Shown here piece after piece: positions 47,677-56,803 of a stretch of DNA of 64,000 bases. The notes below the pieces were generated by a model that worked only from the letters and a program-made list of their open reading frames with translations, was not told the DNA's origin and did not search any database. Source of the DNA: Planctomycetota bacterium (GTDB lineage Bacteria; Planctomycetota; J058). Made by a program: the position numbers and the translations under genes. Numbering within the stretch: position 1 is the first letter of the stretch; each line of letters opens with the position of its first letter. The stretch is from positions 5,647-69,646 of the forward strand of contig JAESQQ010000719.1 in NCBI GenBank assembly GCA_016765095.1, given 5' to 3'.

Positions 47677-48414
47677 CTAGACCCGGCGGAGGCCCTCTGT
47701 GCGCCTAGCTTCTTGGTGAGCCCGCGCTCCTCGGTCTTCGCTTGAGCTCCCAACGACTGGATCGCTGCAGTCTGGCACAAGAGTCACCAGAGCTTCGTCA
47801 AAGGGAACTCGCGGAGAGGGCTTCTGAGTGGGAGGCAAGGTCGCCCAGACCGGATTCCCTCCGAGTCGGCCGACCAAGAGGCCGACGAGCCGGCCCTGCG
47901 CGTCGAGCATTGGCGATCCAGAGTCACCTGGCAGGGAGGCGCAAGGCAAGTTGAAGAGCCCGCTCGACGCCCAGAGCTGAGTCGGCTCCCCATGGGCGAC
48001 CTCCAAGACCTCGTCGGGCTCAAAGCCCCCAAAGCCGAACAAACCCTCGGACTCCTCCAAGCGGAGCTCGATCAGATCCTCAGGCGCGGAGGGGATCCGA
48101 CGTGTCACGTGGGCGTCGACGGCGATCAATCGCCCGCTGATCTCGACTTCAATCTCGGTCGCGCCCTCCAACACGTGAGCCACGGTCAATACGCGGCCCC
48201 CCTCGATCACGGCACCCGCGCCCACGGTCCACGATCCGTCCGCCCGGTAGGCGAGCAACGACACCCGCCCGACCTTGTTCGAACGGCGATCCGAGCGATC
48301 GAATTGAGCCCAGCCCGCCTCCTCGAGGGCGTCCTCGAAGGAGTTCAGGGCTGCGCAGCCGCTGAGCAGTGGGAGTGAGCAAAGCAAAAGTCCGTGGAGC
48401 CAGAGTCGGGTCAT
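47677..48414 (-). CDS. Trypsin-like serine protease lipoprotein
   Basis: Lipobox LLSGCAA. Catalytic triad contexts TVAHV, D (in IELRL) and GDSGSP. It is a paralogue of 56090..56803. Confidence 0.8.
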   Translation of the reverse strand: MTRLWLHGLLLCSLPLLSGCAALNSFEDALEEAGWAQFDRSDRRSNKVGRVSLLAYRADGSWTVGAGAVIEGGRVLTVAHVLEGATEIEVEISGRLIAVDAHVTRRIPSAPEDLIELRLEESEGLFGFGGFEPDEVLEVAHGEPTQLWASSGLFNLPCASLPGDSGSPMLDAQGRLVGLLVGRLGGNPVWATLPPTQKPSPRVPFDEALVTLVPDCSDPVVGSSSEDRGARAHQEARRTEGLRRV

Positions 48415-48574
48415 GGGTCACCTCAGCAGGACCGTTCGCGAATCGCGAGCCAAACGCACGGATCGACCATGACTGAACTTAGGCCTATGGGGGGCAAGTC
48501 CGCCCCGATCGCTTGACCCCCCGAGGGGAGGCAATCCCGCACCCAAGCTTGGGGGTGAGGGTCAGCCGGTCCTG

Positions 48575-49294
48575 CTAAGCCTGCGGTGCGAGCCGGACCA
48601 CGACCTCGACGGGCGCGGCCGCCGGGTCGAAGGCGATCTTGAGGAACTCCGCGGCGACGTATTCAGTCGAGTTGAAGGCCTCGTCAGCTTTCAGCTGGAG
48701 GAAGCTGTCGAGGAGCGGGAAGCGCTCCTTCGGAGTGGAACGTATCGTCCGCTGCATGTCTGTGTCGATCACGCCGGGAGCCACGCTGAAGACGCGAAAG
48801 CCTCCGCCCTCCTCCTCTGCGAGGCACTCGCTGAGGCGGTCGAGAGCGGCCTTGCTCGCGCAGTAAGCCGTCCAACCTGCGTAGCCCTTGAGAGCGGAGC
48901 CGCTGCTGACGTTGATCAGAGTCCCCTCCTCCGCCCGATGGCGAAGGAAGACCTGGGCCCCCAGGAGACAGCCGATCACGTTGATCTCCAGGTGACGCGC
49001 AAGGTCTGCGGACGAAAGGTCACGTGCGAACACGATCGGAGTCAAGATCGCGGCGTTGTTCACCCAGAGGTCGATCGGCCCCAGGGTCCGGGCGACCTCC
49101 GCCCCAAAGGCCTCGAGGGCCTCTCCATCGGTCACGTCGAGGGACGCCGAGACCACGTCAGGCCCCTCCAGAGACGGACGCGTGCGCGCGCAGACCCCGA
49201 CCTTCACCCCCTGCGCGCGAAAGGCCGCAGCCATTCCTGCACCCAGTCCACGGCTCGCGCCTGTCACGACCGCGACCTTCCCTGCGAAGTCCAC
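48575..49294 (-). CDS. Short-chain dehydrogenase/reductase (SDR)
   Basis: TGASRGLG, NNAA, and the S...YxxxK motif (SSGS...YCASK). Confidence 0.85.
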   Translation of the reverse strand: MDFAGKVAVVTGASRGLGAGMAAAFRAQGVKVGVCARTRPSLEGPDVVSASLDVTDGEALEAFGAEVARTLGPIDLWVNNAAILTPIVFARDLSSADLARHLEINVIGCLLGAQVFLRHRAEEGTLINVSSGSALKGYAGWTAYCASKAALDRLSECLAEEEGGGFRVFSVAPGVIDTDMQRTIRSTPKERFPLLDSFLQLKADEAFNSTEYVAAEFLKIAFDPAAAPVEVVVRLAPQA

Positions 49295-49300
49295 GCGGAG

Positions 49301-54725: not shown

Positions 54726-55948
54726 TAGCCCAGCTCCACGCGGACACGCCGCACGATCGTCTGGAGCGCCCGCTCCACAACGCTCGTCTCGGGGTGACGA
54801 ACGATCACGTAACCCTGTCCTTCATAGCCGCCGCCCGAGGACTGACCCCGCTGGGGCAGCTTGGCCTCGACCACCAGCTCGCCGACTTCCTGTTGAGCCA
54901 ACTCCAAGCCACGAACCCCCACGACCCGCGAGCCGCTGCCCTGGCCGCGGAGGTAAGCCGCCCCGACCGCGTAGCGCCGCTCGGGCGGGTCGAAGGTCTC
55001 TGCTCCAACCAGCCGCGCCCAGGCCTGATACATGTCGGTGTCGTAGGCATAGCTCAAGAGCGTCGTGATCTGCGCGCCGGGCGGCCGCGCCGCGACTTCG
55101 GAGACGACCACGCTCCCGTCCTCGCGGCGAAACCACTCCAAGTGGCTCATCCCGGTCTCCATTCCGAGCGCCGCGAGCGCCTGGGCCCCTGCCTCGCGGA
55201 TCGGTGCGTATTCCTCGCCGCTCACGTCCCGGGGCAGGAGGACGCACCACTGGATCCAGTCGTGTTGGAGCACCTCGAGCGGCGTCGGGTGGTAGTGACT
55301 GACGCTCGCCCAGAGCAACTTCCCTTTGAGGCACACCGAGTCGAAGGAGTGCTCACGCCCGACGACGAACTCCTCTAGGAGCGTTGGCCGCTCGGCGCTA
55401 GGCGGGAAGGCAGCCAGCGCGTCTGCGACTTGCTCGGGCCGATCGAGCCGGAACGTATTCTTGGCCCCAGCACCGGCCTGAGGCTTGATCACGACGGGGA
55501 GGTCGACCTCGGCCAAGAAGGCCTCCGCCTCGGCCACCGAATGCGCCAAGCAGTGGCGTGCGCAAGGAACGCCGGCCGCGCGCAGCACGTCCTTCATGCG
55601 CGCCTTGTCGCGGAAGTTATGCGCCGCCTCAACACGCATTCCGGGCAGTCCGAGGGTCTCGCGAGCCTCCGCCAGCGGAACCTGGAGCTCCTCCAAGACG
55701 CCGATCAGCCCCTCGACTGGCCCCAGAAGCTTGCCGAGGCCCTCGACCGCGGTCACGATTTGCCCCGCGTCGAGGGGGTTCTCGACCTGCCAATGCCCCG
55801 CCGCGCTGGCCGCAATCTCAGGCCCGAAGCGGGCTAGAGGGTCACTGCTGATCACGCCCACTCGGAGTCCAGGCACAGCGAGAGCTGCCCGCAGAAAGCG
55901 GAGAGAGGTGTCGAACACGAAAGGAAGCACGAAGGCGAGGGTAGGCAT
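54725..55948 (-). CDS. ATP-grasp enzyme, L-amino-acid-ligase-like (paralogue of 53499..54725)
   Basis: FRDKARMKDVLRAAGVP...LPVVIKPQAGAGAKNTFRL...EEFVVGREHSFDSV. 407 aa. It overlaps the downstream gene by 1 nt. Confidence 0.8.
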   Translation of the reverse strand: MPTLAFVLPFVFDTSLRFLRAALAVPGLRVGVISSDPLARFGPEIAASAAGHWQVENPLDAGQIVTAVEGLGKLLGPVEGLIGVLEELQVPLAEARETLGLPGMRVEAAHNFRDKARMKDVLRAAGVPCARHCLAHSVAEAEAFLAEVDLPVVIKPQAGAGAKNTFRLDRPEQVADALAAFPPSAERPTLLEEFVVGREHSFDSVCLKGKLLWASVSHYHPTPLEVLQHDWIQWCVLLPRDVSGEEYAPIREAGAQALAALGMETGMSHLEWFRREDGSVVVSEVAARPPGAQITTLLSYAYDTDMYQAWARLVGAETFDPPERRYAVGAAYLRGQGSGSRVVGVRGLELAQQEVGELVVEAKLPQRGQSSGGGYEGQGYVIVRHPETSVVERALQTIVRRVRVELG

Positions 55949-56089
55949 GCTCAGGAGGGCTTGTGTGGGCCGACACGCTATCGAGGAGTCATGGCAGAGG
56001 CCAGCCTGAGCAAGGCATTTCGGACCCGGCGTCCAGGCTCGCGCAGCTGAGTCGCCAGAGGGTCCCCCTGGCCAGGGCCAAACCCCCAG

Positions 56090-56803
56090 CTAGGCGGCGC
56101 CCAGGCCCCGCCAGTTCGGACCTCTCCAGTTGAGGGCCAGCCCCTCGAGCCCGCCCGGAGCCTCTGGCGAAGCCGGCAGCGGGGCCACCGGTGTCGGGGC
56201 GATCTCGGCGCCCCTGACCGGCAGGCTGACCCAGACCGGCGACTCCCCGATCCGCCCGATCAGGAGCCCGACCAGTCTGCCCTCTGCGTCGAGCAGCGGT
56301 GAACCCGAGTCACCCGGGGCCGAGGTGCAGGGCAGGGTGAAGAGCCCCAGCGAGGCCCAGAGCTGAGTCGGCTCCCCGCTGGCCACTCCGAGGACCTCCT
56401 CGGAGCTGAAGCCGCCAAATCCCAAGACACCGTCGGACACCCTCAGCCGGAGCTCGACGATCTCCTCGGGCATGGCGTGGATCCGGCGCTCGATTTGAGC
56501 GTCGACCGAGATCAACCGTCCGTTGATCTCGACCTCGATCTCGCTCGCGCCCTCGACGACGTGCGCCACAGTCAGCACCCGATCGCGCCCGACCACAGCC
56601 CCAGCACCCCGGACCCAGGAGCCGTCCGCCCGGTGGACGAGCAGCGCCACGCGGCCGACCTGGTTCGCGCGGCGGTCCGAGCGGTCGAATTGAGCCCAGC
56701 CGGCCTCCTCCAGGGTGTCCTCGAAGCTGTTCAGGGCGGCGCAGCCGCTGCTCAGGAGCAGCAGCAAGCAGATCAGCAGTCCTTGCAGCCAGCGCGGAAT
56801 CAT
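56090..56803 (-). CDS. Trypsin-like serine protease lipoprotein (paralogue of 47677..48414)
   Basis: The start at MIPRWLQGLLICLLLLLSSGCAA has GGAGAGG upstream. TVAHVV and GDSGSP. It is about 80% identical at nucleotide level to the other copy over the protease domain. Confidence 0.8.
   Translation of the reverse strand: MIPRWLQGLLICLLLLLSSGCAALNSFEDTLEEAGWAQFDRSDRRANQVGRVALLVHRADGSWVRGAGAVVGRDRVLTVAHVVEGASEIEVEINGRLISVDAQIERRIHAMPEEIVELRLRVSDGVLGFGGFSSEEVLGVASGEPTQLWASLGLFTLPCTSAPGDSGSPLLDAEGRLVGLLIGRIGESPVWVSLPVRGAEIAPTPVAPLPASPEAPGGLEGLALNWRGPNWRGLGAA

Follow-up and report, generated by a model that had tools for sequence, protein, structure and literature searches.

Organization of the gene cluster

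The DNA analyzed here is a 64-kb stretch of a Planctomycetota bacterium genome (metagenomic contig JAESQQ010000719.1), hereafter called the window, and the system under study is a gene cluster at positions 47677-56803. Nine genes lie there, all on the minus strand and all with the boundaries originally assigned to them, in agreement with the gene calls on public copies of the contig (ENA ERZ23499216, scaffold_214; NCBI tag JKY65_25230). Seven of them form an operon of co-directional genes, as the initial annotation of this DNA had proposed, and the family assignments given there were also recovered. In the order of transcription, the operon encodes two ATP-grasp ligases of the L-amino-acid ligase (LAL) type, AG1 (54725-55948, 407 aa) and its paralog AG2 (53499-54725, 408 aa); a serine peptidase of family S51 with the cyanophycinase/PepE fold (52558-53502, hereafter S51); two α/β-hydrolases of family PF00756, the first preceded by a β-sandwich N-domain (Est1, 51419-52561) and the second short (Est2, 50659-51405, 248 aa); an orphan ATP-grasp protein (AG3, 49301-50659) with a core of about 409 aa and a disordered lysine-rich tail; and a short-chain dehydrogenase/reductase (SDR, 48575-49294). 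Two trypsin-like serine proteases, Prot1 (56090-56803) and Prot2 (47677-48414), flank the operon at distances of 141 nt from AG1 and 160 nt from the SDR gene, respectively.

The operon genes are co-transcribed and translationally coupled. The stop of AG1 and the start of AG2 share 1 nt, AG2 and S51 overlap in ATGA, S51 and Est1 in GTGA, and Est2 and AG3 by 1 nt, whereas gaps of 13 nt and 6 nt separate Est1 from Est2 and AG3 from the SDR gene. The idea that all seven genes are joined by overlaps of 1-4 nt is thus correct for four of the six internal junctions and incorrect for the two others. Since the arrangement is conserved in many unrelated contigs, it lies far beyond what chance would produce. 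Two plus-strand open reading frames (ORFs), 48938-50104 and 52468-53484, run antisense to real genes and are artifacts of high GC content, and the minus-strand ORF 51419-53578 (719 aa) corresponds to Est1, spuriously extended at its N-terminus across S51.

The ATP-grasp enzymes

AG1 and AG2 are L-amino-acid-ligase-type enzymes for which ligase activity is predicted. They share 31% identity (E = 1e-51) and the architecture of the LAL group, with matches to PF02222 (44.5 bits for AG1), PF13535 and PF18130, the ATPgrasp_N and ATP-grasp_3 domains being recognized in AG2, and LAL_C2 (PF18603) is annotated on some homologs. Their best relatives of solved structure are LALs, namely RizA (4wd3, E = 3.7e-15), BacD (1.6e-9) and BL00235 (4.2e-9), which bears out their initial description as LAL-like. 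It had also been considered that such proteins might turn out to be housekeeping ATP-grasp enzymes; their scores remained far under the curated NCBIfam cutoffs for Ddl (27 against 246 bits), PurK (40 against 318), PurT (19 against 502), biotin carboxylase (22 against 740) and CPSase (24 against 1027). Orthologs of AG1 (7131 homologs) are 57-63% identical across phyla and those of AG2 in other loci 57-87%. Most loci that carry the full gene set also encode a third LAL paralog, LAL3. Each of AG1, AG2 and LAL3 is 57-70% identical to its own orthologs but only about 30% identical to the two others, which indicates three ancient, separately constrained ligases.

No gene of the system is more conserved than AG3, which evolves slowly. 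Despite more than 7,900 homologs (clustered at 90% identity), which fall into few clusters at 50% identity, it matches no Pfam or NCBIfam family. Sequence searches against solved structures gave no usable match for AG3 (best E = 0.09) or for S51, hence the use of fold searches for both; these confirmed an ATP-grasp fold in AG3, nearest to RimK and synapsin. With the RimK/LysX/GshB/synapsin/graspetide-ligase clade AG3 shares only 8-15% identity, and it differs from these enzymes in an extra helical domain of about 130 residues, without any match, that forms its C-terminal third, in being accompanied by two esterases, and in having no gene for a carrier protein or a precursor peptide nearby. The ATP-binding lysine, the glycine-rich loop and the acidic or asparagine magnesium ligands are kept in at least 95% of 88 orthologs, and so are eight tryptophans, across phyla, which would suit an enzyme that binds sugars. 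Longer AG3 homologs provided no informative extra domains. The lysine-rich tail reported initially is indeed visible in the translation. In the Planctomycetota clade around this protein (P0002, P0004, P0011, P0015, P0021), the tails are of low complexity and variable. The window and its two closest relatives have tails rich in lysine, alanine and proline, while in others the tail is acidic or missing. Because of this variation, the tail cannot be counted among the conserved features, and we rejected it as a functional domain.

The peptidase and the esterases

The S51 protein passes the gathering cutoff of PF03575 (29.8 against 23.9 bits), and its peptidase fold was confirmed by the structural fold search, although no solved structure could be matched by sequence, even with a profile, and identity to cyanophycinases amounts to 13-17%. 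Among 37 diverse homologs, S210 and H252 are each kept in 35, and position 281 is an aspartate in 32 and a glutamate in three; the correspondence of these residues with the PepE motifs GWSAGA, NPH and PEG was judged by eye. The catalytic Ser-His-Glu/Asp set is thus present, and the protein is a putative Asp-X dipeptidase or cyanophycinase-type peptidase. Residues 63-152 form an antiparallel helical hairpin of about 90 residues that is inserted in the fold, is specific to this subfamily and is found neither in PepE and cyanophycinases nor in other characterized members; it could serve in oligomerization or docking. The motif G39-W40-x-E42-R43-E44 is invariant in the subfamily.

Both esterases exceed the PF00756 cutoff of 22 bits (Est1 76.4, Est2 41.9), and they appear, from their residue conservation, to be serine α/β-hydrolases with intact active sites, the GxSxG serine and the catalytic histidine being retained in both across phyla. 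In Est1, S255 is invariant and H354 nearly so among 54 orthologs; in Est2, G116-x-S118-x-G120 and H232 are kept in at least 95% of 64 orthologs. The best solved relative of Est1 is the enterochelin esterase Fes (2b20, E = 1.3e-14), followed by CE1 esterases with a CBM48 carbohydrate-binding module (CBM), and its N-terminal β-sandwich resembles that of Fes and of E-set domains, with a weak Enterochelin_N match (27.8 bits). Within the CE1/Fes/Ag85 family, Est1 shares with Fes the two-domain layout, the GxSxG motif and the catalytic histidine, but it is cytoplasmic and coupled to S51, scores 114 bits against the 222-bit cutoff of the Fes equivalog NF007758, and occurs in loci in which no siderophore genes were found. 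Est2 shows a weak match to polyhydroxyalkanoate (PHA) depolymerases. In an Alteromonadaceae ortholog of Est1 (locus L013), the N-domain is replaced by a starch-binding CBM_20 domain (E = 6e-8). Around AG3, positions 4128-14367 of the same locus also encode a LAL3-like ligase, two Est2-like proteins, an M28 peptidase with an fn3 domain and an AstE/AspA-type deacylase.

Judged by the conserved residues, all three ATP-grasp enzymes and all three serine hydrolases of the operon are therefore catalytically intact.

Conservation across phyla

The gene set is ancient and widespread. Its core is the trio Est1-Est2-AG3, which is conserved in at least six phyla with 50-60% identity; it was seen in Planctomycetota, Chloroflexota, Actinomycetota, Trueperaceae, SAR324, Alteromonadaceae and Sumerlaeota, among which AG3 is 47-74% identical. 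The cultured Knoellia subterranea KCTC 19937 (locus L081) is one carrier of the trio. Among 90 loci with AG3, Est2 was present in 70 and Est1 in 63, and in most loci of the trio its order is preserved and nothing else, so that Est1-Est2-AG3 is the minimal unit. The full set AG1-AG2-S51-Est1-Est2/AG3 is found in related Planctomycetota (L003, L020, L086, L087, L088), in further loci (L083, L089-L092) and in many metagenome loci; it is rearranged in distant lineages, including a Candidatus Eiseniibacteriota genome and a Xanthomonadales genome. The combination AG1-AG2-S51-Est1-AG3-Est2 with a third LAL recurs in several phyla. S51 and Est1 hardly ever part, Est1 following S51 in 24 of 26 metagenome loci. 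The inserts in the cluster of locus L098 (FGE-sulfatase-like and CarboxypepD_reg proteins) are lineage-specific.

A second companion, rarer than the glycogen genes described below and absent from the window, is a GCS2-CBS carboxylate-amine ligase, which adjoins or overlaps the trio in L012 (1631-6889), L013 (7836-9758) and L090 (318-2225), and similarly in L023, L035, L042, L068, L083, L112 and L144, loci that belong to several phyla; its overlap with Est1 in SAR324 measures 4 nt. Apart from GCS2, clustering of neighbors and Pfam enrichment around the trio-only loci returned only lineage-specific synteny. Occasional companions are GGT (L083), GGACT (L090) and AstE/AspA-type genes.

Physical coupling to glycogen synthesis genes

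The main new result, which the initial annotation did not contain, is that this gene set is physically coupled to the genes of glycogen synthesis. In L090 and L092, glgA-LAL3-S51-Est1 and AG1-AG2-glgB form divergent operons with overlaps of 4 nt; glgC-glgA comes immediately after AG3 in L086; and glgA-LAL3 stands beside AG1 in L083 and L091. Metagenomes were then scanned with an S51 profile and loci of at least 10 kb were retained; since the peptidase was the bait, this sample was not chosen for glycogen genes. The recurrent layout is LAL3-glgA, followed by AG1, AG2, S51, Est1, AG3 and Est2, followed by glgC. When lineages were counted such that their S51 proteins are at most 70% identical to one another, 19 of the 32 independent lineages had glgA, glgB or glgC at a distance of no more than 10 kb. 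By our estimate, which takes three genes among several thousand and about 18 neighboring genes, chance would give such proximity in about 1-2% of cases. The neighboring glg genes score above the respective NCBIfam cutoffs (GlgA, GlgB and GlgC). Furthermore, glgB is located 0.05-7 kb from AG3 in seven Actinomycetota loci of the trio, which may owe this to shared ancestry.

A possible role in glycogen storage metabolism

We tentatively propose, with a confidence somewhat short of even, that the operon is a widespread cytoplasmic ligase/hydrolase module of glycogen (α-glucan) storage metabolism, of which the window holds a trimmed copy. Such a module would either attach an acyl or peptidyl group to the glucan or produce a companion reserve that resembles cyanophycin. 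According to this proposal, the ligases would activate carboxylates (amino acids or small acids) with ATP as acyl-phosphates and would assemble an acyl, aminoacyl or short-peptidyl group, in which linkages of the Asp/Glu type are probably abundant; the Asp-type linkages are suggested by the known specificity of the S51 family. The group would be ester-linked to glucan hydroxyls or be deposited with glycogen as a companion reserve, Est1 and Est2 may remove or transfer the ester-linked groups, and S51 may trim the peptide part. Members of PF00756 act on esters of sugars or serine and include transferases such as Ag85. The N-domain of Est1, of a type found in sugar enzymes, and its exchange for CBM20 suggest an ester on the glucan or an action at the glycogen granule. 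Est1-Est2-AG3 would be the ancestral minimal unit, and AG1, AG2, LAL3 and S51 would represent an elaboration of it. The SDR and the two flanking protease lipoproteins are local additions.

A bolder version, which we regard as rather unlikely, is that many phyla reversibly esterify glycogen with amino-acid or short-peptide groups, AG3 and the three LALs adding them and the CBM-type esterases and S51 removing them. If true, this would create a mixed reserve of carbon and nitrogen, or a solubility switch that works by charge as starch phosphorylation does. The phosphorylation of starch and glycogen by the dikinases GWD/PWD and its reversal by the phosphatases SEX4/LSF2/laforin provide an analogy: a charged group is put on the glucan by an enzyme of the ATP-grasp type and taken off again by hydrolases that bear CBMs. 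Here, however, a carboxyl ester rather than a phosphate ester would be concerned, the systems are not homologous, and the comparison is one of inference alone.

Several observations weigh against a role in glycogen metabolism. The 64-kb window itself contains no glgA, glgB, glgC or LAL3, and most trio-only loci have no glycogen gene nearby. The CBM20 fusion concerns one lineage among the 54 Est1 orthologs, and the N-domain of Est1 from the window gave no significant hhalign match to the CBM48 of GlgB or to the CBM20 of L013. The adjacency could reflect the co-regulation of two reserves instead of chemistry on glucan. In addition, aminoacyl esters of sugars are chemically labile, and the presence of both ligases and hydrolases in one operon would lead to futile cycling, unless regulation prevents it or the "esterases" work as transferases.

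The chief rival explanation is a free-standing cyanophycin-like nitrogen reserve in which the ligases polymerize amino acids, S51 and the other hydrolases depolymerize the product, and the glg genes are co-regulated neighbors, carbon and nitrogen reserves being managed together. Synthetase and hydrolase genes cluster in cyanophycin loci too, and α/β-hydrolases related to polyhydroxybutyrate depolymerases cleave poly(aspartate), as in PahZ1, so that the PHA-depolymerase match of Est2 is suggestive here, together with weak partial matches of AG1 and AG2 to the ATP-grasp domain of cyanophycin synthetase and the proximity of AG3 to RimK, a poly-glutamate ligase. The known system (CphA1 with CphB/CphE) differs on several points: the operon lacks the Mur-ligase M domain of CphA, its S51 carries the 90-residue hairpin, and it adds two esterases, up to four separate ligases and the coupling to glgA, glgB or glgC. 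Scores against the cyanophycin synthetase equivalog TIGR02068 (35.5 bits for AG1, 33.3 for AG2) fall far below its cutoff of 850, and the match spans only about 90 residues. Moreover, the most conserved unit is without the peptidase, and both the translational coupling with glgA and glgB and the CBM20 of Est1 point to the glucan itself. The suggestion of cyanophycin-like polymer metabolism made initially is compatible with the evidence, and we consider a free-standing reserve of this kind conceivable but unlikely. The presence of GCS2-CBS beside the trio in ten listed loci, with GGT in L083 and GGACT in L090, raises instead a γ-glutamyl or low-molecular-weight thiol peptide pathway in which AG3 would be a glutathione-synthetase analog working with a GCS2-type ligase, and Est1 and Est2 would be thioesterases like esterase D; PF00756 does include S-formylglutathione hydrolase. 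This seems improbable, as GCS2-CBS is missing from the window and from the majority of loci, Est1 resembles Fes and the CE1 esterases more closely than esterase D, and the glg coupling and the three LAL paralogs would be left unexplained.

The initial annotation chiefly suggested that the cluster makes an antibiotic of the dipeptide or oligopeptide type as a secondary metabolite. Indeed, AG1 and AG2 share the LAL-type architecture with antibiotic-related ligases (RizA, BacD/YwfE, BL00235, TabS) at E-values between 1e-15 and 1e-9, and the pairing of adjacent LALs with hydrolases is reminiscent of the loci for rhizocticin and bacilysin. However, they belong to ancient orthologous groups that cross phyla rather than to sporadic clusters, with thousands of homologs and each paralog 57-70% identical across distant phyla, and they stay under all equivalog cutoffs, BacD included (34.7 bits against 850). 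The genes of the operon, 50-65% identical across many phyla, are embedded among housekeeping glycogen genes (glgA, glgB, glgC), and no exporter, immunity, resistance or precursor-supply gene is conserved alongside, which makes an antibiotic cluster very improbable. Even less credit can be given to a horizontally acquired or duplicated island delimited by the protease genes as direct repeats, a view that is largely refuted. Two paralogous genes in direct orientation do flank the operon and the GC content dips over AG3 and Est2, but the repeats share 71% DNA identity over the coding sequence only, with flanks at random level, the GC content at third codon positions (GC3) of AG3 (0.85) and Est2 (0.80) resembles that of the neighbors, there are no tRNA genes and no mobility gene among the annotated ORFs, and relatives carry the operon without the proteases. 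A graspetide system, in which a peptide made on the ribosome and modified after translation would be matured, was also tried and was rejected because no precursor gene turned up and the conservation is too high for such a maturase. No conserved small ORF was found near the ligases among clustered neighbors, a set that comprised ORFs of 100 aa or more, and the junctions are overlaps or gaps of 6-13 nt.

Full-text searches retrieved no literature on this cluster, part of whose neighborhood may be catalogued by Iyer et al. (2009). In a 2024 review of prokaryotic α-glucan enzymes, the words esterase, acylated and esterified are all absent, and neither this review nor the full-text searches mention an esterification of glycogen with amino-acid or peptide groups. 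AG1, S51 and AG3 nevertheless have about 4,000 to 8,000 homologs each and a housekeeping-like conservation across at least six phyla. Their translational coupling to glgA, glgB and glgC, seen repeatedly, implies that bacterial storage metabolism has a branch not yet described. If this branch yields a decorated glucan or a novel companion polymer, current views of glycogen turnover, carbon/nitrogen balance and granule physiology would have to be revised for Planctomycetota, Actinomycetota, Chloroflexota and other lineages, and new ligases would become available for biocatalysis.

Flanking genes and genomic context

Prot1 and Prot2 are trypsin-like proteins (Trypsin_2, 42.3 and 40.1 bits) with lipoprotein-type signal peptides (LLSSGC in Prot1, lipobox LLSGC in Prot2), and paralogous lipoproteins thus bracket the operon as originally described. 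Their nucleotide identity had been put at about 80%; it is 71% overall, reaching 83-88% only in some windows of 60 nt, for 69% identity at the protein level. Their flanks are unrelated (45-47% identity) and no protease of this type was found in 170 related loci; in the nearest relative, L087, LAL3 occupies the position of Prot1. The proteases are old paralogs and local additions outside the conserved system, and we rejected them as borders of an island in view of their unrelated flanks and their absence from relatives, so that the proposed direct-repeat bracketing could not be upheld. A larger trypsin-like protease (759 aa) encoded at 5091-7370 is 27-31% identical to Prot1 and Prot2. The SDR (adh_short, 135.6 bits) follows AG3 only in L087 and is a lineage-specific accessory gene.

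The dip in GC content that had been taken as a sign of acquisition is real, with values of 0.59-0.61 over AG3 and Est2. It is confined to codon positions 1 and 2, since 28% of the AG3 residues are K, N, F, Y, I or M, and the GC3 of AG3 equals or exceeds most of the range seen in the neighbors (0.76-0.88). A foreign origin on this ground was therefore rejected, and with it the notion of a block acquired or duplicated as a unit. A scan of the region revealed no tRNA gene, and neither the gene calls over about 21 kb around the operon nor a Pfam search of ten larger ORFs of the window turned up an integrase or transposase.

The 141-nt leader upstream of AG1 (55949-56089) contains a conserved element of about 45 nt, …GCTGGCC.C.GCC…GACTCCTCGATAGCGTGTCGGCCC…, whose core CTCGATAGCGTGTC lies at 55972-55985 on the minus strand. 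L087 and L088 have this element too, and L003 has part of it, although the adjacent gene differs, being Prot1 in the window and a divergent LAL3 in these relatives. Rfam gave no match to the element or the region, and promoter and terminator scans of the region were also empty; the element is probably a promoter or leader.

The surroundings are those of an ordinary chromosome, with genes for SMC, a MetH-like protein, a sigma-54 activator, hybrid histidine kinases and fusions of receiver (REC) domains with kinases. Positions 30286-47660 encode four hybrid histidine kinases that contain PAS, GAF, REC and Hpt domains, one more large protein of the kinase type, and CheR, and positions 57025-60242 a single-domain REC protein, two REC-Ser/Thr-kinase fusions and an FHA-kinase. 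Finally, the ORF at 12391-14232 combines homocysteine S-methyltransferase and MTHFR domains.

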